From: a virus
DNA: 64,000 bases
Strand: one strand, 5' to 3'
IMG/VR virus record: IMGVR_UViG_3300025875_000007
Location: 1-64,000 of that record
Within the stretch, counting starts at the first letter, position 1; each line of letters starts with the position of its first letter. Below the pieces are notes generated by a model that saw nothing but the letters and a program-made list of their open reading frames with translations, had not been told where the DNA came from and ran no database searches. Positions 3,207 through 62,957 of this stretch are shown piece after piece. Both the position numbers and the translations under genes were made by a program.

Positions 3207-3403
3207 ATCCCGTTAGAGTTAAAGTCGGACCGGCCCGTTGGGGGCATCACAGCTATGTGTATGAGTCTCGGCCACTACTTGAGGATTTCGTGTACAAGTA
3301 TTGGCGACCCACCGAAAGGTGGGCGATTAGTCGAGCCTGTCGAAAGCGGAAGCAGCTCATAGCCCATATGCATCGACAGCAACATGTTAGGACTGTGATC
3401 TAA
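3200..3403 (+). CDS. hypothetical protein
   Basis: Track ORF, translationally coupled to the helicase gene. Confidence 0.45.
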
Positions 3404-3620
3404 TAATTAGAGATCGAACACGACTCGACGAACTCCTCGAATCTTGGGGTGCTGCGGCTCCATACGAAGGAACCGGACTCAACCGACTCCCTGAGATCAT
3501 GGAGATCTGTTACGAGAGAGCGCGCGTTACTGGTGTTCGTCAGAAGCTGACTTGGAATGCCCAACACAAGTCATGGTTCGTTTTCAATCTGGAAGATCAA
3601 CCACTACCCTAGGAGCAATA

Positions 3621-41633: not shown

Positions 41634-41661
41634 GTCGCGATATTTACATCTCCTATAAAGG
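41634..41661 (+). promoter_or_regulatory. promoter-motif copy (GTCGCG-N14-TATAAA)
   Basis: TCGCG at 41635-41639, hexamer at 41654-41659, 29 nt before ATG 41688. Confidence 0.5.
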
Positions 41662-41687
41662 AAGCCCCCCTCTACGTTAGGAGAAAT

Positions 41688-41978
41688 ATGTTCAGCAAGA
41701 AGCCTTGCCCTGAAGAGACGGAGCTTAACACCGAGATCACTCGCGTGCTTGCCGTGCTTGCACGATGTGAGCCCGATTCCGACGAGTACACCAGCGCAGT
41801 CAAGAACCTCGCGACGCTGTACGCGCAGAAGGAGACCCTTCCTGTCACGCGCGTCAGCCCCGACACGTTCTGGACCGTCGTTGCCAACCTCGCCGGACTC
41901 GCTCTCGTCACGCAGTACGAGCGCGCGAACGTCCTCGGTGGTTACGCCATCAAGCTCGTCAGGCAGCTGAAGAACTGA
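41688..41978 (+). CDS. hypothetical protein (96 aa)
   Basis: Track ORF with an AGGAGA RBS. High GC3. Confidence 0.7.
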   Translation: MFSKKPCPEETELNTEITRVLAVLARCEPDSDEYTSAVKNLATLYAQKETLPVTRVSPDTFWTVVANLAGLALVTQYERANVLGGYAIKLVRQLKN

Positions 41979-42007
41979 GCAGTCCCCGCTAGACCCTTCC
42001 GAAGTCG

Positions 42008-42052
42008 GAGGGCACGCGAACCTTAAACAAGTTTGCGTGCCCTCTGATTTTC
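42008..42052 (+). terminator. intrinsic terminator
   Basis: GAGGGCACGC (42008-42017) pairs with GCGTGCCCTC (42035-42044), followed by TGATTTT. Confidence 0.7.
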
Positions 42053-42080
42053 GGTTGAATTACATATCCTCTAATTTTTG

Positions 42081-42108
42081 GTCGCGTGATATTCATCGCC
42101 TATAATGA
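42081..42108 (+). promoter_or_regulatory. promoter-motif copy
   Basis: GTCGCG-N14-TATAAT(42101-42106)-GA. Confidence 0.55.
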
Positions 42109-42137
42109 CCCGACTCCACCAATTCTAAGGAGATCCG

Positions 42138-42371
42138 ATGCACCCGACCCTCAAGGTTCTGGTGGCCATCTTCGTCACCACTCTTGCCAACCACAAGTTC
42201 TACCAGTACAAGCTTTCCATGCTCGACGACCTGCACCGCCAGGCCTCGATCAAGGAGTGCATGGAAGGGTGGACGCGCGGCTTCAAGGATGGTGAGCTGG
42301 AAGGCCGCCGGGCCATGTGGCTCGAACACCTGACCGATCCCAAGGCACCCTGGTACAAGTCCGAGTCCTAA
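42138..42371 (+). CDS. small protein (77 aa), N-terminal TM
   Basis: AAGGAGA RBS and its own motif promoter. Confidence 0.7.
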   Translation: MHPTLKVLVAIFVTTLANHKFYQYKLSMLDDLHRQASIKECMEGWTRGFKDGELEGRRAMWLEHLTDPKAPWYKSES

Positions 42372-42375
42372 GGCC

Positions 42376-42403
42376 GGAGCCCCTCACAAGGGCTCTAGTC
42401 TTT
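42376..42403 (+). terminator. conserved hairpin + TAGTCTTT module
   Basis: GAGCCC/GGGCTC stem, then TAGTCTTT at 42396-42403. Confidence 0.5.
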
Positions 42404-42429
42404 CGCGAGATATTCACGCCCTATAATGA
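42402..42429 (+). promoter_or_regulatory. promoter-motif copy
   Basis: TTCGCG-N14-TATAAT(42422-42427)-GA. Confidence 0.55.
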
Positions 42430-42454
42430 CCAGCCCTCAACCTCAGGAGTTCGC

Positions 42455-42565
42455 ATGAAGCTCAAGACCGTCCTCGTCAACCTCGGCGCCTTCGCCACCG
42501 TGTTCATCGCGGCCACCAAGGCGCTCGAGTACTTCGACAAGAAGAACAAGCTCCGCAACAACTGA
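42455..42565 (+). CDS. 36-aa membrane peptide
   Basis: CAGGAG RBS. MKLKTVLVNLGAFATVFIAATKALEYFDKKNKLRNN. It shares the stop of track ORF 42317..42565. Confidence 0.55.
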   Translation: MKLKTVLVNLGAFATVFIAATKALEYFDKKNKLRNN

Positions 42566-42585
42566 CCCGAGATCCGAGACCTCTG

Positions 42586-42616
42586 AAGTCTATGTAACCC
42601 ATAGGCTTTACGTCTT
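42586..42616 (+). terminator. conserved hairpin module
   Basis: AAGTCTATG/CATAGGCTT 9-bp stem, then TACGTCTT. Confidence 0.5.
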
Positions 42617-42642
42617 CGCGGATATTACACGGACTATAACGA
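42615..42642 (+). promoter_or_regulatory. promoter-motif copy
   Basis: TTCGCG-N14-TATAAC(42635-42640)-GA. Confidence 0.5.
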
Positions 42643-42668
42643 CCCCGCTCACAACATCAGGAGTAGAC

Positions 42669-42821
42669 ATGTTCGACCTGTCGCACCCCAAGTCCGTGAC
42701 CCTCATCGTGACGGTCAACCTCGACCCCGTTCCGGGTACCTTCCACACCCAGGAGAGTGCTCAGGAGGGCGTCCAGGCCATCCTCACCTCGATGATCCCG
42801 CACTACAAGCCCGACGTCTAG
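42669..42821 (+). CDS. 50-aa protein, hypothetical
   Basis: CAGGAG RBS then ATG 42669: MFDLSHPKSVTLIVTVNLDPVPGTFHTQESAQEGVQAILTSMIPHYKPDV. It is below the track cutoff. Confidence 0.5.
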   Translation: MFDLSHPKSVTLIVTVNLDPVPGTFHTQESAQEGVQAILTSMIPHYKPDV

Positions 42822-42854
42822 ATCCACCCGATGCACGCGTAGTCACAGACCTCT

Positions 42855-42879
42855 GAAGCCCTCATGGGTTTTAAGTCTT
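42855..42879 (+). terminator. weak hairpin + TAAGTCTT module
   Basis: GAAGCCC/GGGTTTT pair with wobbles, then AAGTCTT. Confidence 0.35.
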
Positions 42880-42880
42880 A

Positions 42881-42908
42881 TTCGCGAGAAAAACAAGCCC
42901 TATAATGA
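42881..42908 (+). promoter_or_regulatory. promoter-motif copy
   Basis: TTCGCG-N14-TATAAT(42901-42906)-GA. Confidence 0.55.
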
Positions 42909-42939
42909 CCCAACCACTACAACTGTTAGGAGCCCCACC

Positions 42940-43200
42940 GTGGACCTCAGCAGCAGCGTGATCATGCCTCGAGAAGACTTCATCGAGCTCACGACATGCG
43001 CCTTCAACCAGCCCCCCACGTCGCCCGCCGAGCGCGTCGCCGTCACCCTGCAGACCACCATCATCTTCGCAGGGATCGCCGCCGCCTTCAGCGGTGCCAC
43101 GTACGTCTGGTACCGGCTCATGTCGAAGCTCGAGTCGGAGAAGACCGAGAACGAGATCACCGTCATCGACGCCCGCGCCAACAGCTACAAGCAGCAGTAG
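42940..43200 (+). CDS. small membrane protein (86 aa)
   Basis: GTG after TAGGAG. TM VAVTLQTTIIFAGIAAAFSGATYVWY. Confidence 0.65.
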   Translation: MDLSSSVIMPREDFIELTTCAFNQPPTSPAERVAVTLQTTIIFAGIAAAFSGATYVWYRLMSKLESEKTENEITVIDARANSYKQQ

Positions 43201-43215
43201 ATCAGTCAAGACCCC

Positions 43216-43249
43216 GAGTCTATGCCCACCAGCATAGGCTCTAGGTCTT
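43216..43249 (+). terminator. conserved hairpin + TAGGTCTT module (repeat family copy A)
   Basis: GAGTCTATGC/GCATAGGCTC 10-bp stem. Confidence 0.55.
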
Positions 43250-43266
43250 CAAAATAGGAGTGTTTT

Positions 43267-43440
43267 ATGGCTGCATCCTTCGTCGATCCTAAACTTGATG
43301 AGTTCATAAAGTTCTTAGAAAGCCTTTCGGAAATTCCCCTGTCTCCTTGGCAAAAAGAGCTTGCAAAGGTGGTTTTAAGCGGTAAGAAGTTCCGCATCGT
43401 CCAAGGTCGCAAGGGATCGTACATCGTGACAGACGCGTAA
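43267..43440 (+). CDS. 57-aa protein, hypothetical (AT-richer insert, no motif promoter)
   Basis: TAGGAG RBS. MAASFVDPKLDEFIKFLESLSEIPLSPWQKELAKVVLSGKKFRIVQGRKGSYIVTDA. Confidence 0.45.
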   Translation: MAASFVDPKLDEFIKFLESLSEIPLSPWQKELAKVVLSGKKFRIVQGRKGSYIVTDA

Positions 43441-43459
43441 CTTTCACGCCCTATAGTGA
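43432..43459 (+). promoter_or_regulatory. promoter-motif copy (ACGCG variant)
   Basis: ACGCG(43433-43437)-N14-TATAGT(43452-43457)-GA. Confidence 0.45.
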
Positions 43460-43494
43460 AAGACCCATCGCCATCCCGACAGAAAGAAGTCGTC

Positions 43495-43719
43495 ATGACC
43501 ATGTTCGCCAAGCTCATCACCGAAGCCACCATCGAGGAGATCACCGAGACCAACGACGGTGTGCGCCCCGCCGACGAGACCCTGAACAACAACACGTTCT
43601 ACGTCTACCCGGACGCGCACACCGACGCCCACGCGGAGATCCTCACCCGAGCCGCCTTCGGCAAGAAGTACGCCTGGCACGACGTCAACTCGACCGACAA
43701 CATCGTCGTCCCGCGCTAG
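43495..43719 (+). CDS. small acidic protein (74 aa)
   Basis: ATG 43495 within track ORF 43456... AGAAAGAAG lies upstream. Confidence 0.6.
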   Translation: MTMFAKLITEATIEEITETNDGVRPADETLNNNTFYVYPDAHTDAHAEILTRAAFGKKYAWHDVNSTDNIVVPR

Positions 43720-43732
43720 TCCTTCACCAAGG

Positions 43733-43760
43733 CTAGGCCCCCTCCAGGGGCTTTAGTCTT
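43733..43760 (+). terminator. conserved hairpin + TTAGTCTTT (part of an exact 48-nt repeat)
   Basis: GCCCC/GGGGC stem. Positions 43721-43768 are identical to 44038-44085. Confidence 0.5.
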
Positions 43761-43762
43761 TG

Positions 43763-43790
43763 CTCGCGCAAAAGACATGGACCCTAATGA
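43763..43790 (+). promoter_or_regulatory. promoter-motif copy (degenerate hexamer CCTAAT)
   Basis: CTCGCG-N14-CCTAAT-GA. Confidence 0.4.
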
Positions 43791-43815
43791 AGGACCCCGA
43801 CCCAGAAGGAGAGAC

Positions 43816-44034
43816 ATGTCCAAGCAATTCAAGCGTTCCGACGCCTGCACCAAGCTCATCGAGTCCATCTACATGATCAGCTCCGGACCAGACATCACGC
43901 CCCCAGACCTCAACCGAGGCTTCCTGGAGGCGCTGACCTGCTTCGCCGCGACCATGAGTGGCCACACGAGCGTCATCGCAGGCACCGACAGCGACGGAGA
44001 AGTCGAAGACTTCATGTTCATCTTCCGCAACTAG
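43816..44034 (+). CDS. small protein (72 aa)
   Basis: GAAGGAGAGA RBS then ATG 43816 within track ORF 43777... Confidence 0.6.
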   Translation: MSKQFKRSDACTKLIESIYMISSGPDITPPDLNRGFLEALTCFAATMSGHTSVIAGTDSDGEVEDFMFIFRN

Positions 44035-44049
44035 CACCCTTCACCAAGG

Positions 44050-44077
44050 CTAGGCCCCCTCCAGGGGCTTTAGTCTT
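44050..44077 (+). terminator. conserved hairpin + TTAGTCTTT (second copy of the 48-nt repeat)
   Basis: Identical to the copy at 43733-43760. Confidence 0.5.
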
Positions 44078-44079
44078 TG

Positions 44080-44107
44080 CTCGCGTTATATTCATCTCCT
44101 ATAGTGA
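44080..44107 (+). promoter_or_regulatory. promoter-motif copy
   Basis: CTCGCG-N14-TATAGT(44100-44105)-GA. Confidence 0.55.
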
Positions 44108-44135
44108 AGACCCCCTACCCCATCAAGGAGATCCC

Positions 44136-44372
44136 ATGCACGGACCCTACGGCTTCGAGAAGACCACCCGCACGGTGGCCGACCTCCAGGAGGACGACCG
44201 ATTTTACATCGGTGGACTCATGTACAAGGTCCTCGGCGACCCGCTCACCAATTCGGTGAACGGCGAAGTCCAGGTCCGCATGTACCCCGTGTTCGTCGAC
44301 TTCCTCCCGGACATCACCGTCATGACCCTTCCCGGCCGGAACCCGATCGAGATCCACAACCAGCCCGCGTAG
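44136..44372 (+). CDS. small protein (78 aa)
   Basis: AAGGAGA RBS. Track ORF. Confidence 0.7.
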   Translation: MHGPYGFEKTTRTVADLQEDDRFYIGGLMYKVLGDPLTNSVNGEVQVRMYPVFVDFLPDITVMTLPGRNPIEIHNQPA

Positions 44373-44384
44373 ACCCTTCGAAGG

Positions 44385-44417
44385 CTAGAGCCCCCATCAC
44401 CATGGGCTTTAGTCTTT
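44385..44417 (+). terminator. conserved hairpin + TTAGTCTTT module
   Basis: AGCCC...GGGCT stem, then TTAGTCTTT ending at 44417. Confidence 0.45.
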
Positions 44418-44456
44418 GCAAATCTAAAAAATTCCCGGGGGAGGTTTTCAGTCAAA

Positions 44457-44484
44457 GTCGCGTAAAAAACACGCACTATAATGA
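44457..44484 (+). promoter_or_regulatory. promoter-motif copy
   Basis: GTCGCG-N14-TATAAT(44477-44482)-GA. Confidence 0.55.
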
Positions 44485-44511
44485 CCCGACCCATCTGATT
44501 GGAGAGCCCCC

Positions 44512-44730
44512 ATGCTCAACAAGCTCAAGAAGTCCAACCGGTACCAGTACACCTGTCCCGACGTCATCCACTACCGCAAGAACCAGTACCGGCTCGCGAT
44601 CTACTCCAACGTGTTCGCAGTCGCTACCCAGGTCCTCTTCTGGGGTGGCCTCGTCGCGATGAGCAAGCGCCTGGACCCGAAGCCGACCCTCAAGCCCGTG
44701 GAGCCCCTCAGCCCCTCCGACGCCAGCTAG
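44512..44730 (+). CDS. small membrane protein (72 aa)
   Basis: GGAGAG RBS. TM IYSNVFAVATQVLFWGGLVAM. Confidence 0.7.
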   Translation: MLNKLKKSNRYQYTCPDVIHYRKNQYRLAIYSNVFAVATQVLFWGGLVAMSKRLDPKPTLKPVEPLSPSDAS

Positions 44731-44745
44731 TCCCGTCAAGACCCC

Positions 44746-44779
44746 GAGTCTATGCCCACAAGCATAGGCTCTAGGTCTT
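44746..44779 (+). terminator. conserved hairpin + TAGGTCTT (repeat family copy B)
   Basis: The 35-nt core 44745-44779 is identical to 45953-45987 and differs by 1 nt from 43215-43249. Confidence 0.55.
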
Positions 44780-44787
44780 ACTGAAAT

Positions 44788-44815
44788 ATCGCGACATATA
44801 CATATCCTATAGTGA
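44788..44815 (+). promoter_or_regulatory. promoter-motif copy
   Basis: ATCGCG-N14-TATAGT(44808-44813)-GA. Confidence 0.55.
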
Positions 44816-44843
44816 ACGTCCATCTCTCACGAAGGAGTTTTAT

Positions 44844-44948
44844 ATGCCACGACTCATTCAGTACGTCCTCTGGACTTGGTTCTCGTGCATCCTCATGTAC
44901 GGCGGAACCATCCTGTTCGTCTTTGCGCTCGTCAGCATCATGACCTAG
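44844..44948 (+). CDS. 34-aa membrane peptide
   Basis: GAAGGAG RBS. MPRLIQYVLWTWFSCILMYGGTILFVFALVSIMT. Confidence 0.5.
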   Translation: MPRLIQYVLWTWFSCILMYGGTILFVFALVSIMT

Positions 44949-44974
44949 CTTCTACAGATCTAGTTCAAGGCTAC

Positions 44975-44998
44975 AGCCCTACACGGGCTTTAGTCTTT
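44975..44998 (+). terminator. conserved hairpin + TTAGTCTTT module
   Basis: AGCCC-TACAC-GGGCT, then TTAGTCTTT. Confidence 0.45.
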
Positions 44999-45003
44999 CG
45001 CAA

Positions 45004-45076
45004 GGGCCTATAGCTCAATTGGCAGAGCAGCGGACTTTTAATCCGCGGGTTCAGGGTTCGAGTCCCTGTGGGCCCA
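45004..45076 (+). tRNA. tRNA-Lys (anticodon UUU)
   Basis: Cloverleaf folded by hand. Acceptor GGGCCTA/TGGGCCC, D-arm AGCTCAATTGGCAGAGC, anticodon arm GCGGA-CTTTTAA-TCCGC, T-arm CAGGG-TTCGAGT-CCCTG. Confidence 0.85.
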
Positions 45077-45144
45077 CTCGCAAGGGGAGTCGTCACTAAG
45101 ATTTACCAACATGCAGTCCCCCATGATATTCTGCATGTTGGCTG

Positions 45145-45217
45145 GTCCTCATCGTCCAGTGGCCTAGGACTCCACCCTTTCAAGGTGGCTACGCGGGTTC
45201 GAATCCCGTTGAGGGCA
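45145..45217 (+). tRNA. tRNA-Glu (anticodon UUC)
   Basis: Acceptor GTCCTCA/TGAGGGC, D-arm GTCC-AGTGGCCTA-GGAC, anticodon arm CCACC-CTTTCAA-GGTGG, T-arm GCGGG-TTCGAAT-CCCGT. Confidence 0.85.
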
Positions 45218-45250
45218 CGATACATACCAACCAAAATAGGAGCGATAATT

Positions 45251-45445
45251 ATGGTTCAGATGGTTATTCAGAGGATTTCTGATAAGAAGTTTGCTTCGCT
45301 GCGCGGTTTCATGAACCACATAACGGACGCCGAATTCTTCGACGACGAAGTACATGCATTGGAAGTCATGCAAGACTACACGAAGAGCGGTACTCCATGC
45401 GAGTTGCTTTACGTCACAATCACCATGTCAAACGTAAAGGGCTAG
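45251..45445 (+). CDS. hypothetical protein (64 aa)
   Basis: TAGGAG RBS then ATG 45251. The upstream part of track ORF 45068.. overlaps both tRNAs and is rejected. Confidence 0.55.
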   Translation: MVQMVIQRISDKKFASLRGFMNHITDAEFFDDEVHALEVMQDYTKSGTPCELLYVTITMSNVKG

Positions 45446-45449
45446 TCTC

Positions 45450-45599
45450 ATGGAATCGGTTCAAATTGTAGTCACAAGACTAACGCCATCGCCAGGAGTA
45501 ACGCTTTACTCCATTCAAAACGCAGACGGTAAGGTGACGCAGGCGGAAGCGGTGGCTATACTTCGGGCAGCTGCTGATGATATGGAAAGTCGTAAATAG
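45450..45599 (+). CDS. hypothetical protein (49 aa)
   Basis: ATG 45450: MESVQIVVTRLTPSPGVTLYSIQNADGKVTQAEAVAILRAAADDMESRK. Confidence 0.4.
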   Translation: MESVQIVVTRLTPSPGVTLYSIQNADGKVTQAEAVAILRAAADDMESRK

Positions 45600-45604
45600 G
45601 ATCA

Positions 45605-45632
45605 CTCGCGAAAAAAACACGCCCTATAACGA
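45605..45632 (+). promoter_or_regulatory. promoter-motif copy
   Basis: CTCGCG-N14-TATAAC(45625-45630)-GA. Confidence 0.5.
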
Positions 45633-45661
45633 CCCTGTTCATCCGACAGATTGGAAATGTC

Positions 45662-45925
45662 ATGACCGACACCTCCGTCACCCCCACCACCGTCCCCACC
45701 GTCCCCCCGTCCCCGACGAGCGTCCCCGTGCCGCCCGCCGAGACCGAGACGGTCGCCAAGGTCGCCGGCGTCCTCGTGCGCGCGAAGGGTGGAGCCTCCA
45801 AGCTCCTCACCCGCTTCGCCGTGCCCGTCGCCACCGGTGCCCTGACCGGCCTCCTCGTCAACGCCAAGCGCAACCGCTCGGAGAACGAGGACGACGACGT
45901 GGTGGTCGACGAGTCGAACGACTAG
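45662..45925 (+). CDS. Pro/Thr-rich small protein (87 aa) with one hydrophobic segment
   Basis: Track ORF. High GC3. Confidence 0.65.
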   Translation: MTDTSVTPTTVPTVPPSPTSVPVPPAETETVAKVAGVLVRAKGGASKLLTRFAVPVATGALTGLLVNAKRNRSENEDDDVVVDESND

Positions 45926-45953
45926 TCCCATCCGCCTCAACAGATCAGGCCTC

Positions 45954-45988
45954 GAGTCTATGCCCACAAGCATAGGCTCTAGGTCTTT
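45954..45988 (+). terminator. conserved hairpin + TAGGTCTTT (repeat family copy C)
   Basis: GAGTCTATGC/GCATAGGCTC stem. Confidence 0.55.
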
Positions 45989-45991
45989 CTG

Positions 45992-46019
45992 TTCGCGATA
46001 TTTACATCGCCCATAGTGA
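45992..46019 (+). promoter_or_regulatory. promoter-motif copy
   Basis: TTCGCG-N14-CATAGT(46012-46017)-GA. Confidence 0.5.
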
Positions 46020-46140
46020 AGAAATATCCCTTACTATGGAGTGTAAGATGAGATCACTGTGTTATGTCAATAGCACCCCCGGAAGCCCTGACAAGCGGAC
46101 AAATTGTGAAACTTCTTTCCCTTTTATTTTTGGAGGAAAC

Positions 46141-46341
46141 ATGACACACGAGTATCGAGCGGCCGGAAGCATCGACCTCATGCCCCCCGCAACACTCGAA
46201 GATGTTGAAGCGTTCTGTAGAGAAGCTCGAAAGCTTGGTGTCTCTGAGAAGTCACCACTACACACAACCCGACAAGGACTAGTCGGTCCGATTGTAGGTT
46301 GGTATTTCTCAGTTCCTGTAGTACCGGCAGCTCCGCAGTAG
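46141..46341 (+). CDS. hypothetical protein (66 aa)
   Basis: TGGAGGAAAC RBS then ATG 46141. The upstream part of track ORF 46036.. is AT-rich and lacks an RBS. Confidence 0.55.
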   Translation: MTHEYRAAGSIDLMPPATLEDVEAFCREARKLGVSEKSPLHTTRQGLVGPIVGWYFSVPVVPAAPQ

Positions 46342-46369
46342 TTCGCGTAAAATACACATCCCATAGTAG
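46342..46369 (+). promoter_or_regulatory. promoter-motif copy
   Basis: TTCGCG-N14-CATAGT(46362-46367)-AG. Confidence 0.5.
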
Positions 46370-46493
46370 AGGAGTCCTGAAAAGGATCCGAGACACTAAT
46401 GTGTAGGTGAAAACCCTACCCGGAGTGGTAGCCATTAAAGATAAGGCTACTTAACGGACTGTTTTAGTTGGACAGTCACCTCCTCTATTTTTT
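46368..46493 (+). ncRNA. ~125-nt structured RNA / leader closed by a long-range stem and a U-run
   Basis: AGAGGAG (46368-46374) pairs with CTCCTCT (46480-46486), followed by ATTTTTT. Internal hairpins: GTAGCC/GGCTAC and GACTGT/ACAGTC. There is no credible ORF. Confidence 0.45.
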
Positions 46494-46515
46494 CGCCTCA
46501 ATTTAAGGGAGCTCG

Positions 46516-46719
46516 ATGGATGCACTTGCTCTAACAATCATGCAATTTTTGGACAGCGTCATTATCGTCGCTGTACTAGCGTTTGTTGTCTGGCTGGTTC
46601 TTAGCCTGACCCCGAAGCCTCGTCCCGTCTCGGGGCAAACATATCTCTACATCAAGCCGTCAGACGACGACTTCTTCGACATGATTACGGAGTTCCGCAA
46701 TGACATCCCTGGTAAGTAG
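46516..46719 (+). CDS. small membrane protein (67 aa)
   Basis: AAGGGAG RBS. TM VIIVAVLAFVVWLVLSL. Confidence 0.65.
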   Translation: MDALALTIMQFLDSVIIVAVLAFVVWLVLSLTPKPRPVSGQTYLYIKPSDDDFFDMITEFRNDIPGK

Positions 46720-47482
46720 GTTCAAGGCAATCGAGAAGCTGGCGATCGACAACTCGCCCGTTCTTCTGACCGCAATCGGTGTGGCCGGTGTCATCGGCAC
46801 TGCAATCCTGACCCACCGTGCGGCGCTCAAAACGCACCGCGTGCTCCTCGAGGTCGAGGACAACCAGCTCGCAAACAAGGAGCCATTCACGCCTCTGACT
46901 CCGAAGGAGAAGGTGAAGGCGACCTGGACGCACTACATCCCCCCGGTCGTCTCAGGCACAGCCACCATCACCGCCATCGTGCTGGCCAACCACATCAGTA
47001 CGAAGCGTGCGGCAGCCCTTGCTGTTGCGTGCACGATCTCGGAGAAGGCGTACACCGAGTACCGCGACAAGGTCGTAGAGCGATTCGGTGAAAAGGAAGA
47101 GAACCAGATCCGAAACGGTATCGCACAGGACCGGATCGATAAGGCGCCGCCCACCGAGGGCAACGTGCTCATGGTTTCTGGCGGTGATCACCTCTTCATG
47201 GAGATGTACACCGGCCGGTACTTCCGAAGCGATATCGAGACGATTCGTCGAGCCGAGAATCAGCTCAACCACAAGCTCAACACAAACGGCTACGCCACCG
47301 TGTCTGATTTCTATGACATGATCGGCCTTGCGCACACCGCCATCTCTGATGAGATTGGTTGGAACAGCGACAAGCTGATGGCTGTGGACTACCAGGCCAT
47401 CCTGAGCGAGGATGGTCAGCCGTGCGTTGCGATCAACTTCGTCACGGGTCCGGTCCGCGACTACACTCGGTTTCACGGCTAA
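46700..47482 (+). CDS. conserved phage protein with an N-terminal TM (paralog of 51245..52141)
   Basis: SPVLLTAIGVAGVIGTAILTHRAALKTH opening. C-terminal GYATVSDFYDMIGL...IGW pattern. Confidence 0.65.
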   Translation: MTSLVSRFKAIEKLAIDNSPVLLTAIGVAGVIGTAILTHRAALKTHRVLLEVEDNQLANKEPFTPLTPKEKVKATWTHYIPPVVSGTATITAIVLANHISTKRAAALAVACTISEKAYTEYRDKVVERFGEKEENQIRNGIAQDRIDKAPPTEGNVLMVSGGDHLFMEMYTGRYFRSDIETIRRAENQLNHKLNTNGYATVSDFYDMIGLAHTAISDEIGWNSDKLMAVDYQAILSEDGQPCVAINFVTGPVRDYTRFHG

Positions 47483-48832: not shown

Positions 48833-49438
48833 ATGATCACGAAGACCATCACGTTCGAGGACTTCAACGGTAAGACTCTTACCGAGGAGTTCTGCTTCCA
48901 CCTCTCTGAGGACAAGGTCATTGAGATGGAGCTGAGCAAGAAGGGCGGTCTTACTGAGTACATCAAGCGGATCGTTGCCGAGGAGGACGGTGAGAAGCTG
49001 GTTGCCATCTTCAAGGACCTCCTGACAAAGACCGTCGGTAAGAAGTCTCCGGATGGTCGTAAGTTCATCCAAAACCAGGAGATCACTGACGACTTCGTTC
49101 AGACCCCTGCATATTCCAAGCTCTTTGTTGAACTGTCTACGGATGCGGGCCAGGCTGCGGCATTCATCAACGGTGTTGTTCCCGCTTCGATGCAGGCGGA
49201 GATCAAGAAGAAGCAGCAGGCTGTTACTGATCTTCCGTCTGTCGAGGGTGCTGTTGCGCTCGCGCAGGATGCTCAGGCGTCTACCCCGCTCTCGCAGCAG
49301 GACGAGTTCGAGGAGAAGATGAAGGACCCGGATTGGGTTCCGACACAGAAGGACCTACAGAACATGTCTCCGGCACAGATCGCAGCCGCCTTCCAACGCA
49401 AGCAGGCTCAGACCGAGCGAGCTCAGAGCACTCCGTAG
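48833..49438 (+). CDS. conserved phage protein (201 aa), function unknown
   Basis: Track ORF, tightly coupled to the upstream gene. Confidence 0.65.
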   Translation: MITKTITFEDFNGKTLTEEFCFHLSEDKVIEMELSKKGGLTEYIKRIVAEEDGEKLVAIFKDLLTKTVGKKSPDGRKFIQNQEITDDFVQTPAYSKLFVELSTDAGQAAAFINGVVPASMQAEIKKKQQAVTDLPSVEGAVALAQDAQASTPLSQQDEFEEKMKDPDWVPTQKDLQNMSPAQIAAAFQRKQAQTERAQSTP

Positions 49439-50624: not shown

Positions 50625-50782
50625 TGCCTAGTGAGGCTGAGGAGCGCCGGGCACTTCTTGAGGCATATCCTCCTGTCTCAGACAAGAAGAAGAGCCCGTG
50701 GGTTGAAAAAGTCAATAAGATGTCGAAGGCTCAAGTGCACGCCATCTATATTCGCCTGAAGGATCAGGGTGTGATTAAGTGA
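50624..50782 (+). CDS. hypothetical protein (52 aa)
   Basis: The ATG overlaps the upstream TAA and the stop overlaps the next GTG (GTGA). Confidence 0.45.
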   Translation: MPSEAEERRALLEAYPPVSDKKKSPWVEKVNKMSKAQVHAIYIRLKDQGVIK

Positions 50783-51258
50783 GCGGATGTTCTTGTGGCA
50801 CGCCTTATCAAGAAGGTATTCACGCATCGGATAAGTGCGTGTCCAGGCCCATGCGAGATAGGGGCTGGCTTCTCGTGGCGGAGGCAGTAGCCGCTAGAGC
50901 CGACTGTCGGAGACGACAGATCGGAGCAGTAATCGTAGATAAGCACGACCGCATTGTCAGCACCGGAAGAAATGGCTCACCTCCGGGTGGGCCTTCTTGT
51001 TTGCAGGGAGAGTGTCCTCGAGGGCTCTTAACCACTGACGAGCTTCCCCCTGACAGTTCGTATGACAGCGGTATCGGCAAGTGCGTGGCTGTTCACGCAG
51101 AGGCTAACGCCATGATATTTGGCGATCCCGCTAGAATGCGGGGCGGCACGATGTACATCAGCTGTCCCGTTCCACCATGCCCGGGCTGCCAGCGCTTGAT
51201 TGACGGCATGGGTCTCAAAGTCGTATTCAATTCCAAGGAGAACAATGAGCGTCGTTAG
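50779..51258 (+). CDS. dCMP deaminase (CMP/dCMP-type zinc deaminase)
   Basis: CVAVHAEANAM and PCPGCQRLI zinc-binding motifs. Confidence 0.85.
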   Translation: MSGCSCGTPYQEGIHASDKCVSRPMRDRGWLLVAEAVAARADCRRRQIGAVIVDKHDRIVSTGRNGSPPGGPSCLQGECPRGLLTTDELPPDSSYDSGIGKCVAVHAEANAMIFGDPARMRGGTMYISCPVPPCPGCQRLIDGMGLKVVFNSKENNERR

Positions 51259-52141
51259 TATGATTACGTCAAAGGCAGGATTAACCCTTCTCAAGGGCAA
51301 GAAGCACTCTCCTGTCATCCTGTTCACCGCCGGTGTGATCGGCTTCGGTGCGACGGTCTTTCTCGCCAGCAAGGCTACGCTGGAGCTGGGTGATCTCCTG
51401 GACAAGCACGAGAAGGAGCTGAACGACGCCCGCGACCTCCACGAGGTCAACCGGCTGCAGGACAGCAAGAAGGCCGATCGCGAGCACAAGAAGGTTTCTA
51501 CGGCGATCAAGCTGGTCTTCGTTCGGGACCTCGCGATTCTTTACGGTCCGGCAGTCGGCGTCGGCATCTTGTCTGTGGGTGCACTCACCGGTTCACACAT
51601 CATCATGAACCGTCGGTACACCAGCGTCGTCGCTGCTTACGCAACCCTCGACCGGTCCTTCAGGGAGTACCGCAGCCGGGTTGTGGAGGAGTACGGCGTC
51701 GAGACGGACAAGAAGTTCGTCAACGGAACCACCACTCGCGAGATCGTGTCTGATGACGGCAAGCAGGTCATGACCGTCGAGGAGGCTGCTGGTCTGTCGC
51801 CTTACGCAGCGCTCTTCGCTAAGGACACGACCTTCGACTGGTCGCCGCAGCCCGACTACAACCTGCACTTCCTTCGGGCGCAGCAGCAGATCGCGAATGA
51901 CATCCTGAATTCCAAGGGTTACATCTTCCTGAATGATGTTCGCAAGTCCCTTGGTCTTCCGCTTGTCCCGGAGGGTCAGGCCGTGGGTTGGTTCAAGGAC
52001 AACCCGCGTTCCAAGCACGACAACTGCGTTAGCTTCGGGATCTTCGACAACCCGAATGCGTTCAACGACTTCATGGCGGGCAAGGAAGGCGCTATCTGGC
52101 TGGACTTCAACGTCGACGGCGTTATCTACGATCTTATCTAA
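51245..52141 (+). CDS. conserved phage protein with an N-terminal TM (paralog of 46700..47482)
   Basis: AAGGAGA RBS then ATG 51245. SPVILFTAGVIGFGATVFLASKATLE opening. Confidence 0.65.
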   Translation: MSVVSMITSKAGLTLLKGKKHSPVILFTAGVIGFGATVFLASKATLELGDLLDKHEKELNDARDLHEVNRLQDSKKADREHKKVSTAIKLVFVRDLAILYGPAVGVGILSVGALTGSHIIMNRRYTSVVAAYATLDRSFREYRSRVVEEYGVETDKKFVNGTTTREIVSDDGKQVMTVEEAAGLSPYAALFAKDTTFDWSPQPDYNLHFLRAQQQIANDILNSKGYIFLNDVRKSLGLPLVPEGQAVGWFKDNPRSKHDNCVSFGIFDNPNAFNDFMAGKEGAIWLDFNVDGVIYDLI

Positions 52142-53982: not shown

Positions 53983-56900
53983 ATGGACTTCTATTCGATA
54001 GGCACGAAGGAAGCAAAAAATGGCGTCTTAGAGATTTTCCCAGACTTCATTGTTGGGCGATCTAAGGACCTCATGGTTCGTGCCAATTCGTTTTATGCAA
54101 TCTGGGACGAAGCAGTAAAGCTGTGGTCCACTGACGAGTACGATGTACAGCGTCTTGTGGACGATGAGCTTCGCGAATTCGCCGATAAGAAGAAGGCCGA
54201 AGGCCTCTCGTGCAACGTGAAGTATCTCCGCTCGGTTGGCTCGGGCAGTTGGTATCGATTCCGGAATTTCGTCCGACAGGTTGCCGATAACAGCCATCAA
54301 CTGGACGACAAGTTGGTTTTCGATGGTCAGGAAACAAAGAAGTCTGACTACGTCAGTAGGAAGCTTCCGTACGCACTGACCCCCGGAGACTATTCGGCCT
54401 GGGATGAACTGCTGGGGGTCCTATATTCCACAGAGGAAAGGGCCAAGATCGAATGGGCAATTGGCGCGATTATTTCGGGCGACAGCAAAAAGATCCAGAA
54501 GTTCCTGGTTCTGTACGGTCCGGCGGGAACGGGGAAGTCGACGGTTCTGGACATCATCCAGAAGCTCTTCGTTGGCTACACGACCAGTTTCGAAGCCAAA
54601 GCCCTGGGATCGAACGGGAACGCCTTCGCGACGGAGGTCTTCAAGGGGAATCCCTTGGTAGCGATCCAGCACGATGGGGATCTGAGCAAGATCGAGGACA
54701 ACACGAAGCTGAACTCGATCATCTCGCACGAAGATATGACGATGAACGAGAAGTACAAGCCGTCGTACACAGCCAGGGTGAATGCCTTTTTGTTTATGGG
54801 TACCAACCAGCCTGTGAAGATCTCGGATGCCAAATCCGGTATTATCCGTCGACTGATTGACGTTCATCCGACCGGTGTGAAGATTCCGGTCAACCACTAC
54901 CACACGCTGGTAGGTAAGGTCGACTTCGAGCTGGGTGCTATCGCCCACCACTGCCTTGAGGTCTACCGCAAGATGGGCAAGAACTACTACAACACGTATC
55001 GTCCGCTTGAGATGATGTTGCAGACCGACGTCTTCTTCAACTTCATCGAAGCCAAATACGATGTCTTCAAGTCGCAGGACGGCACAACGCTGAAGCAGGC
55101 GTACACGCTCTACAAGGAATTCTGCAGCGACACAGGTATCGAGCGTATGCTGCCGCAGTACAAGGTTCGAGAGGAGCTTCGTAACTACTTCGAGGACTTC
55201 AAGGATCGCGCAACTGTTGGTGGCGAGGTTGTTCGAAGCTACTACTCCGGATTCTCAGCACACCCCTTCAAGGCTCCGGCCAAGGAGGCGAATACGTTTT
55301 CTCTGGTTTTGGATGAGACCACGTCTATATTTGATGAGGAGTACGCAAACTGTGCAGCCCAATACGCAAACGATGCGGGAACTCCGAAGAGCGCTTGGAC
55401 TCGCGTTCGAACGCATCTCGGAGATCTTCAGACAACTGAGCAGCACTTTGTCAAGGTGCCTGAGAAGCATATCGTCATCGATTTCGATCTCAAGGATGAT
55501 GCAGGAAACAAGTCGCTCGAGCGCAATCTGGAAGCGGCCAGTGTATGGCCCCCCACGTACGCGGAAGTCAGTCAGGGTGGAGGAGGCGTCCACCTACACT
55601 ACAACTATGAGGGCGATGTCGCCGAGTTAAGTCCCGTATATTCTGACGGCATTGAAGTCAAGGTCTACACGGGAAATGCTTCTCTTCGACGCAGGCTGTC
55701 CAAGTGCAACGCTGTCCCCGTTGCGACGCTAAATTCCGGTCTTCCGAAGAAGGAGAAGCCGAAGGTGCTACATCCAAAGGTTCTCTCTAGCGAGAAGAGT
55801 CTTCGTGACTTGATTGCTCGAAATCTGCGGAAGGAAATCCATCAGGGAACCAAGCCCTCGATCGACTTCATCCACAAGATTCTCGAGGACGCGTACAATA
55901 GCGATCTTCGCTATGACGTCACAGACCTCCAGCCGAAGATTATGGCTTTCGCAGCCGGTAGCAGCAATAAGGCTATGGAGTCTCTGAAGATCGTTCAGAA
56001 GATGAAGTTCACATCTGCAGATAAGGAAATGCTCCTTTCTGATGCTGCTAAAGTTGCCGTTCTCTCGAACAACGCTGGAGCTAAGGACGACCGCTTGGTC
56101 TTCTTCGATGTTGAGGTGTACCCGAACCTCTTCATCGTGTGCTGGAAGTACCAGGGTAGCGACACAGTCGTTCGAATGGTCAATCCCAGTGCACAGGAGA
56201 TTGAGCGTCTCTTCGTCTACAAGCTGGTTGGCTTTAACAACCGGAAATACGACAACCATATTCTTTACGCTCGGTACATGGGCTACTCCAACGAGCAGTT
56301 GTTCAGTCTTTCGCAAAAGATGGTCGTCGAGAACAACAAGAACGCAACCTTCGGCGAGGCCTACAACCTATCCTACTGCGATATTTGGGACTTCAGTTCC
56401 GTCAAGGAGAGTCTCAAGAAGTTCGAGATCATGCTTGGACTCAAGCACATGGAGATGGATATTCCTTGGGATCAGCCCGTTCCCGAGGAGTTGTGGCCGA
56501 AGGTCATCGAGTACTGTGTGAACGATGTGATCGCCACAGAGGCAGTATTCGAGGCTCGGAAGGGTGACTTCACCGCTCGTCAGATTCTGGCGGCGCTTAG
56601 TGGTCTGTCGATCAATGACAGCACCCCGAAGCACACCGCTAAGATCATTTTCGGTGGCGATCGGAACCCGCAGCAAAGCTTCGTCTACACCGATCTGAGT
56701 CGTGACTTCCCCGGATACACGCACAGCTTCGGTAAGTCTCAGTACCGTGACGAGGACCCGAAGGAGGGTGGCTATGTCTACGCAGAGCCAGGCATCCACA
56801 ACAACGTTGCTCTTCTTGACGTTGCCTCCATGCACCCGACCAGCCTGGTTAGACTTAATTATTTCGGACAGTACACCTCTAATTTCGAGGATCTCCTTAA

Positions 56901-57750
56901 GGCACGCCTTGCCATTAAGAACGGACGCTATGGCGAGGCACGTGAAATGCTGGGGGGTCGTCTTGCTCCCTACCTCACCGACGAAAAGGATGCTAAGGAC
57001 CTCGCGTACGCTCTGAAGATTGTCATCAACATCGTCTACGGTCTGACCTCGGCGAAGTTCGACAATCCCTTCAGGGACCCTCGCAACAAGGACAACATCG
57101 TTGCGAAGCGTGGCGCTCTCTTTATGATCGACCTGAAGCACCACGTTCAGGGTTTGGGATACACGGTCGTGCACATCAAGACCGACTCGATCAAGATTGC
57201 CGATGCGGACACGTTCATCATCGATGAGGTTTCCAAGTTCGGTGAGAAGTACGGATACGACTTCGAGCACGAGGCCACGTACGATCGTATGGCTCTCGTG
57301 AATGATGCGGTCTACATCGCTCGCAAGGCAGACTGTCTGGTCAATTGTTGGACGGCTACGGGTGCGCAGTTCATTCACCCGTACGTCTACAAGACGCTGT
57401 TTACTGGCGAAGAGGTCGAGTTCAATGACCTCTGTGAGACCAAGCAGGTCATGAAGGGATCCATCCACCTCAAGATCGGTGACGACCTTCGCTTTATCGG
57501 TCGCATCGGTCGGTTCATTCCTGTCAAGGAAGGTTCAGGTGGCGGAAGCCTGATTCGTGTCCACGAGGGCAAGGAATATGCCGTCACGGGTACTAAGGGT
57601 TTCCTTTGGAAGGAAGCCAACATGTTCGTCGAGGACGTTGATCAGATCGACATCGACTACTTCGAGAATCTGTCGGATGCTGCAGTAAGGTCCATCGAAA
57701 AGTATGGATCCTTCGAAGAGTTCATCGGAGAATACCCTAAGGAGCGGTAA
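53983..57750 (+). CDS. SF3 (D5/P4-like) helicase - AEP prim-pol - family B DNA polymerase fusion
   Basis: Walker A VLYGPAGTGKST (aa ~178). Prim-pol motifs IVIDFDLKD and GGGGVHLHY (aa ~495-555). PolB motifs: ExoI FFDVEVYPN, ExoIII YCVNDV, motif A LLDVASMHPTS, motif B KIVINIVYG, motif C IKTDSI. Confidence 0.85.
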   Translation: MDFYSIGTKEAKNGVLEIFPDFIVGRSKDLMVRANSFYAIWDEAVKLWSTDEYDVQRLVDDELREFADKKKAEGLSCNVKYLRSVGSGSWYRFRNFVRQVADNSHQLDDKLVFDGQETKKSDYVSRKLPYALTPGDYSAWDELLGVLYSTEERAKIEWAIGAIISGDSKKIQKFLVLYGPAGTGKSTVLDIIQKLFVGYTTSFEAKALGSNGNAFATEVFKGNPLVAIQHDGDLSKIEDNTKLNSIISHEDMTMNEKYKPSYTARVNAFLFMGTNQPVKISDAKSGIIRRLIDVHPTGVKIPVNHYHTLVGKVDFELGAIAHHCLEVYRKMGKNYYNTYRPLEMMLQTDVFFNFIEAKYDVFKSQDGTTLKQAYTLYKEFCSDTGIERMLPQYKVREELRNYFEDFKDRATVGGEVVRSYYSGFSAHPFKAPAKEANTFSLVLDETTSIFDEEYANCAAQYANDAGTPKSAWTRVRTHLGDLQTTEQHFVKVPEKHIVIDFDLKDDAGNKSLERNLEAASVWPPTYAEVSQGGGGVHLHYNYEGDVAELSPVYSDGIEVKVYTGNASLRRRLSKCNAVPVATLNSGLPKKEKPKVLHPKVLSSEKSLRDLIARNLRKEIHQGTKPSIDFIHKILEDAYNSDLRYDVTDLQPKIMAFAAGSSNKAMESLKIVQKMKFTSADKEMLLSDAAKVAVLSNNAGAKDDRLVFFDVEVYPNLFIVCWKYQGSDTVVRMVNPSAQEIERLFVYKLVGFNNRKYDNHILYARYMGYSNEQLFSLSQKMVVENNKNATFGEAYNLSYCDIWDFSSVKESLKKFEIMLGLKHMEMDIPWDQPVPEELWPKVIEYCVNDVIATEAVFEARKGDFTARQILAALSGLSINDSTPKHTAKIIFGGDRNPQQSFVYTDLSRDFPGYTHSFGKSQYRDEDPKEGGYVYAEPGIHNNVALLDVASMHPTSLVRLNYFGQYTSNFEDLLKARLAIKNGRYGEAREMLGGRLAPYLTDEKDAKDLAYALKIVINIVYGLTSAKFDNPFRDPRNKDNIVAKRGALFMIDLKHHVQGLGYTVVHIKTDSIKIADADTFIIDEVSKFGEKYGYDFEHEATYDRMALVNDAVYIARKADCLVNCWTATGAQFIHPYVYKTLFTGEEVEFNDLCETKQVMKGSIHLKIGDDLRFIGRIGRFIPVKEGSGGGSLIRVHEGKEYAVTGTKGFLWKEANMFVEDVDQIDIDYFENLSDAAVRSIEKYGSFEEFIGEYPKER

Positions 57751-58041: not shown

Positions 58042-58257
58042 ATGCCAGCAATCAGATATTTTGAGGTCGAAGAGACTCGAGTTGTTCGTGTTGCAGCCCA
58101 CGGTCCAGCCCAGGCAGGCATTATCGCTCAGGCAGCATTCGACCACGGACAGAACTCCGATAATGGTGTCGTAACCGGTAAGGGTCCTGTTGACGTCTGG
58201 GGAAACACCATGACAAGAATCAGGACTGTCAGCATTAACGTCGAGGAGGAGCGCTGA
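58042..58257 (+). CDS. hypothetical protein (71 aa)
   Basis: Track ORF. Its stop overlaps the thyX start. Confidence 0.55.
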   Translation: MPAIRYFEVEETRVVRVAAHGPAQAGIIAQAAFDHGQNSDNGVVTGKGPVDVWGNTMTRIRTVSINVEEER

Positions 58258-59027
58258 TGACCGACTTATTTGTGCCCGCTACGGTCACAGCAATCGGTAT
58301 TACCCAGGCATTGCCGGGGTTTAACGAGGTGCAAAATCAGACCGGATGGCGATCGGACTATCGCGAGAGCGACGCCGAGAGCATCATCGAGTTTGCCGGT
58401 CGAGGCTGCTACGAGAGTTGGGGTCGTCCGAATCCCGCGACCGCTACTGTTGCTGGATATCTCGATCACATCATGGATGTTGGTCACTTCAGTGTAATCG
58501 AGCATGGTTCGATCACCTTCTACTGTCGTGGACTGAGTCGGTCCCTGACGCATGAGCTGGTTCGTCACCGACACTTCAGCTACTCTCAATTGTCGCAGCG
58601 ATACGTGGATCCAGGAGCTGGAAAGAGCAACACGGGTCCGGTTCAGCCGCCGATCAGTGTGGGCGATGATGTGGCTGAGATGATTCTCCAAGAGGCGTGG
58701 GAGGATGCAAATATCCACTACGAGAAGCTGGTGGATCACTTCAAGATGAAGAACCCGAATGCCACTCGTAAGGAGTGGCGTCAGGCGGCTCGAGCAGTCC
58801 TTCCAAATATGACTGAGACTCGTCTGGTTTTGACCGGTAACTTCCGGGCGCTTCGTCACTACTTTGCCATGCGGTGCACCGAGGCTGCAGACGCCGAGAT
58901 CCGTCACTTCGCTTGTCTGATGTTGGACGAGTGCAAGAAGTATGCCCCTCATATCTTTGCCGACTTCGAGTTCGGCGAGCTTGAGGATGGCTCTCGAGTT
59001 GCGTCTAGCAAGTACAGCGAGGCGTAA
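58257..59027 (+). CDS. thyX: FAD-dependent thymidylate synthase ThyX
   Basis: ThyX signature RHRHFSYSQLSQRY. Size is typical. Confidence 0.9.
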   Translation: MTDLFVPATVTAIGITQALPGFNEVQNQTGWRSDYRESDAESIIEFAGRGCYESWGRPNPATATVAGYLDHIMDVGHFSVIEHGSITFYCRGLSRSLTHELVRHRHFSYSQLSQRYVDPGAGKSNTGPVQPPISVGDDVAEMILQEAWEDANIHYEKLVDHFKMKNPNATRKEWRQAARAVLPNMTETRLVLTGNFRALRHYFAMRCTEAADAEIRHFACLMLDECKKYAPHIFADFEFGELEDGSRVASSKYSEA

Positions 59028-59647: not shown

Positions 59648-59900
59648 GAAGCGCAAGGATCAGGAAGTCTTCTTAGTCATCTACAAGGGTGGCGAGAAGA
59701 TTCAAGTCGGTCACGCGATTCTGAAGGGTGACGGCAGCCTCATCGGACAGGTCTCCAAAGACGTGAGAAAAGAGATCACAGATCTCTTATTTGGAGGCCA
59801 ACTCGGTGACGTGTCCTTGAATCCCAGGACTGTCGTACCACCCGATATGTTGTATCACGACGTAATAAAGCGCATTCCCCCGAATATTCAGGAGCAATAA
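59634..59900 (+). CDS. hypothetical protein (88 aa)
   Basis: GTG 59634 within track ORF 59580... The start is uncertain. Confidence 0.5.
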   Translation: MDKREKRKDQEVFLVIYKGGEKIQVGHAILKGDGSLIGQVSKDVRKEITDLLFGGQLGDVSLNPRTVVPPDMLYHDVIKRIPPNIQEQ

Positions 59901-60412
59901 TGCCAGCACAAGTCTCAATTAATAGCTTACTCCATGAGAACGCCAGACTCATGTTCCGAAACTTCGCCGGTCGTGTCGAGCAGTACAACGACAAGGGGGC
60001 TCGAGGTTTCGTCATGTTCCTGGAGCCCGAGCGTGCCGAGGCGATGAAGGCCGAGGGTTGGAACATAAAGTACCTTCGACCTCGGGAAGAGGACGACGTT
60101 CCTCAGGCATATCTTCCGGTGGCCGTCAGTTACAAGATCCGGCCTCCGAAAATCGTGGTGATCACTTCTAAGGCTCGAACAGAGTTCGGCGAGGACGAGC
60201 TTCCGATGCTTGACTACGCGGAGATCAAGAACGCGGACATTATGCTCTCAGCTAGCAACTGGGACGTCAACGGCAATACGGGCATCAAGGCATATCTGAA
60301 GTCGGCGTTCCTTACGCTCAACGAGGACCCGTTGGAGCTGAAGTATGCCGAGGACCCTACTTTGGACCAGACTCCTGCTTTGGCTACGAGTTCGACTGCG
60401 AGTGAGGACTAA
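59900..60412 (+). CDS. conserved phage protein; possible OB-fold ssDNA-binding protein
   Basis: I recall the pattern FRNFAG...GARGFVMFL...GWNIKYL...LPVAVSY...NWDVNGNTGIKAYLKSAFLTLNEDPLELKY from replication modules of Gram-positive phages. The function is not established. Confidence 0.6.
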   Translation: MPAQVSINSLLHENARLMFRNFAGRVEQYNDKGARGFVMFLEPERAEAMKAEGWNIKYLRPREEDDVPQAYLPVAVSYKIRPPKIVVITSKARTEFGEDELPMLDYAEIKNADIMLSASNWDVNGNTGIKAYLKSAFLTLNEDPLELKYAEDPTLDQTPALATSSTASED

Positions 60413-62809: not shown

Positions 62810-62883
62810 GGGCCCTTGGCCCAAATGGCAGAGGCAGGGGCCTTAAAAGCCCCGAGTTATGGGTTCAAGTCCCATAGGGCCCA
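62810..62883 (+). tRNA. tRNA with anticodon UAA (Leu by anticodon) but a short 5-nt variable loop
   Basis: Acceptor GGGCCCT/AGGGCCC, anticodon arm GGGGC-CTTAAAA-GCCCC, variable loop GAGTT, T-arm ATGGG-TTCAAGT-CCCAT, discriminator A. The D-stem has one mismatch. Confidence 0.7.
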
Positions 62884-62957
62884 CGAAACGCCCGGTAACG
62901 ACCCGGGGAAAGGAGATCGTCAGAGTCATGGCCTAATCCACTAATAGAGAAGAAAAT

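Follow-up and report, generated by a model that had tools for sequence, protein, structure and literature searches.

A further member of the HelPrimPolB family of single-chain replicases in an uncultured virus distantly related to actinobacterial phages

We examined a gene located in positions 1 to 64,000 of the IMG/VR virus record IMGVR_UViG_3300025875_000007 (this whole stretch of 64,000 nucleotides is called the window below), where an ATG-to-stop open reading frame (ORF) of 1255 codons runs without interruption on the forward strand (53983..57750, +). The encoded 1255-aa protein is another member of the abundant HelPrimPolB family, which is defined by a family B DNA polymerase (PolB) with a superfamily 3 (SF3) helicase and a PrimPol domain fused at its N-terminus (PMC7544198; PMC4889955), and we found no departure from the published description of that family. 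Taken together, the data are best explained by a HelPrimPolB replicase of an uncultured siphovirus that, by homology, very probably works as GP55 of Lactococcus phage 1706 does. An initial annotation, made from the sequence alone, had proposed that an SF3 helicase, an archaeo-eukaryotic primase (AEP) and a PolB are combined in this single chain in a non-canonical order. All the motifs that it quoted were recovered at about the same residue numbers; the observation is confirmed and its interpretation is supported, for an architecture that the literature has already described, named and characterised biochemically.

The SF3-AEP-PolB fusion was described in 2016 in Lactococcus and Rhodococcus phages (Kazlauskas, Krupovic, Venclovas, NAR 44:4551; PMC4889955), the group was named HelPrimPolB in 2020 as a divergent PolB group prevalent in metagenomes (Kazlauskas et al., NAR 48:10142; PMC7544198), and GP55 was purified and characterised in 2025 (Zhang, Lu, Zhu, Huang, NAR 53:gkaf542; PMC12205980), so the novelty implied for the architecture does not hold. 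A GenBank note of 2010 on gp072 of Rhodococcus phage ReqiPoco6 already read 'COG3378 C-terminal primase domain + COG0417 PolB'. GP55 combines four activities, helicase, primase, polymerase and exonuclease, and carries out de novo DNA synthesis: its helicase depends on UTP/dTTP and on K189; its RNA primase prefers the site 5'-CCAAC-3', initiates with GTP and is deficient in the D509A mutant; a new four-helix domain, the alpha-helix domain (aHD), is essential for priming (Y655, F667); and the PolB needs D949 for polymerisation and D712/E714 for the 3'-5' exonuclease (PMC12205980). The enzyme also performs strand displacement, mostly owed to the helicase domain, dimerises via the helicase region and hands primers from primase to polymerase in trans; it lacks a PriL or helix-bundle domain and has instead the aHD, which is not homologous to the helix-bundle domain (PMC12205980).

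The window protein and GP55 aligned collinearly in BLASTP (aa 1-1242 against GP55 aa 1-1297; 39% identity, 894 bits), with the same domain order of N-terminal region plus SF3, PriS-like AEP, aHD and PolB with exonuclease. Every residue mutated in GP55 is kept in the window protein: the Walker A lysine K189 corresponds to K185, D509 of the AEP DxD to D502 (and D507 to D500), Y655 and F667 of the aHD to Y644 and F656, D712/E714 of ExoI to D709/E711, and D949 of PolB motif A to D946. The catalytic activities of the window protein would accordingly be those of GP55, judging from the conserved residues. The two proteins also share the motif C sequence KTDS. They differ in the Walker A (GPAGTGKST in the window protein, GAKGTGKGT in GP55) and in length, the window protein being 62 aa shorter; much of this gap is a segment of the C-terminal region that is present in GP55 and in Lactococcus phage P162 and absent from the window protein and from ReqiPoco6. 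The closest relatives of the window at the DNA level are actinobacterial phages, whereas 1706 infects Lactococcus.

Homologues covering the whole protein were numerous. PHROG 4210 ('DNA polymerase') matched aa 1-1251 over profile positions 1-1288 of 1304 (1978 bits). A tblastn search of 50,697 phage records matched 400 records, 252 of which contained at least 80% of the window protein at one place; their usual annotation was 'DNA primase/polymerase'. ReqiPoco6 gp072 was 64% identical to the window protein, followed by copies in phages of Gordonia (62-63%), Arthrobacter (55-59%) and Streptomyces (51-55%), and by Lactococcus P162 (37%); Curtobacterium phages were also among the matches. The actinophage homologues, together with gp072 of ReqiPepy6 and ReqiPoco6, were full length with 52-64% identity. 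At least 8000 metagenomic protein clusters matched as well, all at E <= 1e-5, and nearly all of the best 120 were full length. Conservation was evaluated in an alignment of 27 family members at 39-87% identity, from Lactococcus, Rhodococcus and Streptomyces phages and from metagenomes. All the motif residues that we tabulated were invariant in these 27 sequences, including the candidates for Walker B, sensor-1 and the Arg finger and the residues of AEP motifs II/III, ExoII/III and motifs B/C, with two exceptions: Y644 (Y in 26 sequences, F in one) and N753 (N in 22, C in five). A search of the window protein as a single sequence against PDB sequences gave no matches, and DUF5906 was the only Pfam family above threshold in a whole-protein search, with Prim-Pol and DNA_pol_B below it.

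The SF3 helicase of D5/P4 type occupies aa ~116-435 (54328..55287, +). Its Walker A, VLYGPAGTGKST, lies at aa 176-187 (G179-T187, with lysine K185), and we identified candidates for Walker B (D231/D233), sensor-1 (N275) and the Arg finger (R289/R290). DUF5906 matched aa 177-290 (4e-13), and the C-terminal parts of the primase-helicase PHROGs 1829, 864 and 1156 ('DNA primase') matched aa ~116-435. A helical/winged-helix tail resembling Pox_D5 follows at aa 353-420; the Pox_D5 match was weak in the window protein and was found in 20 out of the 27 family members (best 9e-5). We modelled aa 1-700 with AlphaFold2 (predicted local distance difference test score, pLDDT, 78; predicted TM-score, pTM, 0.50). 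Foldseek comparison of this model to the PDB retrieved the C-terminal region (CTR) of NrS-1 polymerase (5.8e-10), the SaPI5 primase-helicase, monkeypox virus (MPXV) E5, vaccinia D5 and the African swine fever virus (ASFV) PrimPol; E values for NrS-1 CTR, SaPI5, E5 and D5 ranged from 1e-8 to 6e-10, and vaccinia D5 superposed with a root-mean-square deviation of 5.0 Å over 369 columns. D5-like helicase-primases also matched in a fold search of BFVD. The call of an SF3/D5-type helicase is therefore borne out by DUF5906, the PHROG profiles and the fold matches.

An N-terminal alpha/beta domain precedes the helicase at aa 1-115 (53983..54327, +), with five strands and two helices (pLDDT ~87-94). 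It had been missed in the initial annotation, as had the aHD, while the three domains listed there stand. We detected no Pfam or PHROG family in aa 1-115 except the whole-protein phrog_4210, and in the GP55 paper the corresponding segment is placed inside the 'helicase domain 1-439' and not treated as a separate domain (PMC12205980). Judging from the model, the domain may be a DNA-/origin-binding or oligomerisation module. We regard as unlikely that it makes the protein a self-initiator through origin or DNA recognition, or that the actinophage clade differs from GP55 in the NTP that it uses, in being hexameric or dimeric, or in its priming-site rule; either reading, if true, would extend the published picture without creating a new class.

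The AEP catalytic domain (PriS-like/PrimPol-like) spans aa ~445-590 (55315..55752, +) and carries VIDFDLKD (498-505) and GGGGVHLHY (532-540), giving motif I D500-x-D502, motif II H537/H539 and a candidate motif III at E558. In the AlphaFold2 model (domain pLDDT ~87-94), the DxD ends strand 496-501 and the long strand that comes next, 536-542, bears H537/H539, both at pLDDT ~90. We searched the isolated segment from 12 diverse family members. PHROG 3022 ('DNA primase') matched all 12 (best 4.8e-7) and PHROG 695 ('DNA polymerase/primase') matched 11, in both cases through the N-terminal part of the profile for the window protein (positions 48-147 of 788 and 64-137 of 704, respectively). Pfam Prim-Pol was the top family for 11 of the 12 segments (best 7.6e-4, under the gathering score), and AEP-TOTE matched four. 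Each of the three domains proposed initially gains support from profile searches, and the putative AEP is the one with the weakest independent support, which comes from the PHROG and Pfam matches and from homology to GP55. The aHD, the predicted primase accessory, follows at aa ~601-680 (55783..56022, +), with four helices at 604-673 in both AlphaFold2 models; it carries Y644 and the invariant F656.

The 3'-5' exonuclease subdomain of the PolB covers aa ~700-875 (56080..56607, +; pLDDT ~86-98). Its motifs FFDVEVYP (707-714) and YCVNDV (844-849) are part of a DEDDy exonuclease set made up of ExoI D709/E711, ExoII N753/D757 and ExoIII Y844/D848, and PHROG 1252 ('DNA polymerase') matched at 2e-46. 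The polymerase subdomains extend over aa ~876-1255 (56608..57747, +), with motif A DVASMHPTS (946-954; D946), motif B KIVINIVYG (1012-1020; K1012-G1020) and motif C IKTDSI (1065-1070; D1068). Motif C is KTDS and not DTDS (aa 1066-1069, 57178-57189), with Lys in place of the first Asp in every one of the 27 sequences, which fits the divergence of motif C reported, along with that of KxY, for the HelPrimPolB group (PMC7544198). A profile of the family matched E. coli Pol II across motifs A-C in the PDB (3e-7), and Pfam DNA_pol_B gave weak matches in seven of the 27 members (best 0.0054). The model of aa 601-1255 (pLDDT 88.7, pTM 0.77) retrieved 9N polymerase (3.3e-17) as well as KOD, Tgo, Pol II and Pol alpha in Foldseek, so that the fold matches of the exonuclease and polymerase span archaeal, bacterial and eukaryotic PolBs. 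These profile and fold matches uphold the earlier call of a PolB with exonuclease. The antisense ORF of 366 aa found within the polymerase gene (56368-57468, -) is in all likelihood a shadow ORF without coding function.

The helicase-before-primase order also proved to be real: the C-terminal halves of the primase-helicase profiles match aa 116-435, ahead of the N-terminal AEP part of PHROG 3022, which matches aa 467-559. The helicase has the D5-type fold seen in poxvirus D5/MPXV E5, ASFV C962R PrimPol, pRN1 ORF904, NrS-1 polymerase and SaPI5, and the AEP is PrimPol-like as in the canonical AEP-SF3 primase-helicases. In those proteins, however, the AEP lies on the N-terminal side of the helicase and no PolB is attached, whereas in the window protein the order is reversed (helicase at aa 116-435, then AEP at aa 445-590), the accessory domain is the aHD and a PolB is fused, which places it outside the canonical AEP-then-SF3 arrangement. 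Another single-chain fusion, Pas55 of Actinoplanes phage phiAsp2, joins an SF3 helicase, a DnaG primase and a PolA (PMC4889955); according to the published description it is alike in design, but its DnaG primase and family A polymerase are not homologous to the window modules.

We found the fusion intact in every full-length copy inspected, and unfused parts were seen only in distant Enterococcus phages (Efquatrovirus). There, a stand-alone gene of 763 aa encodes a related PolB (hhalign probability 98.9%, E = 2.9e-17), and an AEP annotated as 'DNA polymerase/primase', which matches weakly over DxD...GGxH (E = 0.02), is encoded by a separate 246-aa gene ~6 kb away; from their sequences, the two genes appear to be the unfused counterpart of the HelPrimPolB modules. 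In the Enterococcus phage PricklyPear locus the genes are at 229-969 and 6605-8896, with HNH homing endonuclease genes nearby. Streptomyces phage Bing was considered as a natural split and rejected, given that its gp64 is a complete homologue of 1350 aa (55% identity). Bing gp60 (locus 2983-3438) is a truncated P-loop paralogue of 151 aa with internal deletions, 27% identical to aa 139-330, and lies ~2.3 kb upstream of gp64 with three hypothetical genes between them.

By homology to GP55, we propose that the D5/P4-type SF3 helicase in the N-terminal part would hydrolyse NTP (UTP/dTTP in GP55) and unwind DNA, and that it would also confer strand displacement on the polymerase and mediate dimerisation. 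The AEP and the four-helix aHD would recognise sites on the template that are only loosely defined (5'-CCAAC-3' in GP55), making short RNA primers, which would be extended by the C-terminal PolB with its 3'-5' proofreading exonuclease after a hand-off that possibly takes place in trans between subunits. One polypeptide, probably dimeric, would supply all four activities, from helicase and primase to polymerase and exonuclease, and the nearby single-stranded DNA (ssDNA)-binding/annealing protein, dCMP deaminase and ThyX would probably assist. The reading of the protein as a one-chain minimal replisome has been experimentally shown for GP55 (PMC12205980) and is carried over here by homology.

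Several points weigh against this proposal. SF3 helicases are normally hexamers, and the GP55 dimer is unusual. Being only 39% identical to GP55, the window protein may diverge from it in the nucleotide that it prefers, in the specificity of its priming sites and in its oligomeric state. The pTM of 0.50 for the N-terminal half means that the relative arrangement of the domains is not fixed by the model; low-confidence linkers at 418-444 and 591-600 join separate, confidently folded domains. In addition, the Pfam matches of the AEP and PolB domains fall under the gathering thresholds, and when the AEP segment was used by itself in a sequence-profile search of the PDB, no match appeared even at E <= 10.

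The last two points would fit an AEP-like segment that is a degenerate remnant, leaving a helicase-polymerase primed by a host primase, by a protein or by recombination, for which an ssDNA-annealing protein gene lies nearby. We consider this very improbable, because D500, D502, H537, H539 and E558 are invariant in 27 diverse members, the segment ranks among the regions with the highest conservation and model confidence in the protein, and PHROGs 3022 and 695 recognise it in all 12 and in 11 of the 12 members searched, respectively. The polymerase half argues likewise: RNA/DNA-primed PolBs are its top folds, accounting for all 50 of the 50 PDB fold matches listed, and the HelPrimPolB group has been placed in the EpsilonN-like PolB clade (PMC7544198). 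No terminal-protein gene, as in protein-primed (phi29-type) systems, was recognised among the neighbour genes examined. There is also practically no chance that the long ORF arose through a frameshift or misassembly that joined a helicase-primase gene to a polymerase gene. The window does come from metagenomic data (it matches the 86.8-kb contig k141_272686 of the assembly ENA ERZ27293403), but the 252 phage records in which a single place covers 80% or more of the protein, the thousands of full-length metagenomic homologues and the single annotated gene in each isolate phage copy inspected (ReqiPoco6 gp072, Lactococcus P162_0054, Bing gp64 and 1706 gp55) speak against it; Bing only appeared to be split, having an intact gp64 and a small paralogue. 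An intact ORF in independently sequenced isolate phages excludes such an artefact.

The role of the SF3 module leaves somewhat more room for doubt. It would be improbable, though less so than the two previous alternatives, for the module to act mainly as an initiator, DNA-binding or dimerisation unit while the fork is unwound by polymerase displacement or by another helicase. This would agree with GP55 being a dimer and not a hexamer and with the sharp fall of its helicase activity without the polymerase domain (PMC12205980), with D5/P4-family proteins often pairing origin binding with helicase activity (PMC4889955), with the 'putative helicase' orf67 that phage 1706 also has, and with a domain at aa 1-115 that could bind DNA. 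However, unwinding by GP55 is K189- and UTP/dTTP-dependent and its helicase domain gives most of the strand displacement (PMC12205980), the family alignment shows no variation at the candidate residues of Walker A/B, sensor-1 and the Arg finger, and we recognised no second helicase in those genes around the replicase that were scanned or annotated. We thus favour a GP55-like replicase in which the SF3 module would be the working helicase.

The window is best explained, on sequence grounds, as part of an uncultured siphovirus distantly related at the DNA level to actinobacterial phages. Comparison of the DNA gave ~73-74% identity to isolates in some stretches of the terminase-portal-capsid region and the replicase gene; since the nearest isolate copy of the replicase has only 64% protein identity and ~73% DNA identity over part of the gene, the phage represents a distinct, uncultured lineage. 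The replicase lies in a rightward module of replication and nucleotide metabolism, and no other primase or polymerase was recognised among the neighbour genes scanned or annotated. A dCMP deaminase (50779-51258, +) is encoded upstream, and a ThyX-type thymidylate synthase (58257-59027, +; PF02511) and an ssDNA-binding/single-strand-annealing protein (59900-60412, +; PF24083) downstream; the three form a dTTP-supply and recombination module around the replicase. The dTTP-supply genes may be relevant to the use of UTP/dTTP by the GP55 helicase.

The replication module also includes, upstream of the replicase, two paralogues of DUF6353/phrog_2152 (46700-47482 and 51200-52141, both +). Their counterpart in ReqiPoco6, gp069, is annotated as 'membrane protein, similar to Lactococcus phage 1706 gp51', which indicates that the DUF6353 family co-occurs with HelPrimPolB in Lactococcus and Rhodococcus phages. 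The genes of PHROGs 4695 and 4678 directly upstream of the replicase were considered as conserved partners and rejected, as they had no BLASTP similarity to 1706 gp53/gp54. We also found three tRNA genes on the forward strand with ARAGORN and Rfam, Lys(UUU) at 45004-45077, Glu(UUC) at 45145-45218 and Leu(UAA) at 62810-62884, all of which read A-ending codons. The GC skew is -0.14 to -0.17 at ~42000-46000 and positive elsewhere, and there is no ORF of at least 150 aa from 41633 to 46700, which suggests small leftward-transcribed genes at ~42000-46000, between the tail and replication modules. Finally, a 201-aa ORF (48833-49438, +) that matched Pfam PF23803 (Phage_TAC_17) belongs to the early/replication region and is remote from the tail genes.

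One protein chain able to unwind, prime, extend and proofread DNA is among the most compact replication machines known, and such replicases have a possible use in isothermal DNA amplification; the importance of this was acknowledged earlier and put to the test with GP55. To this picture the window adds another HelPrimPolB member, from a divergent uncultured phage that is nearest in DNA to actinobacterial phages, together with the invariance of catalytic residues across 27 sequences from Lactococcus phages, actinobacterial phages and metagenomes, and with evidence that the fusion is kept intact across the full-length copies inspected.

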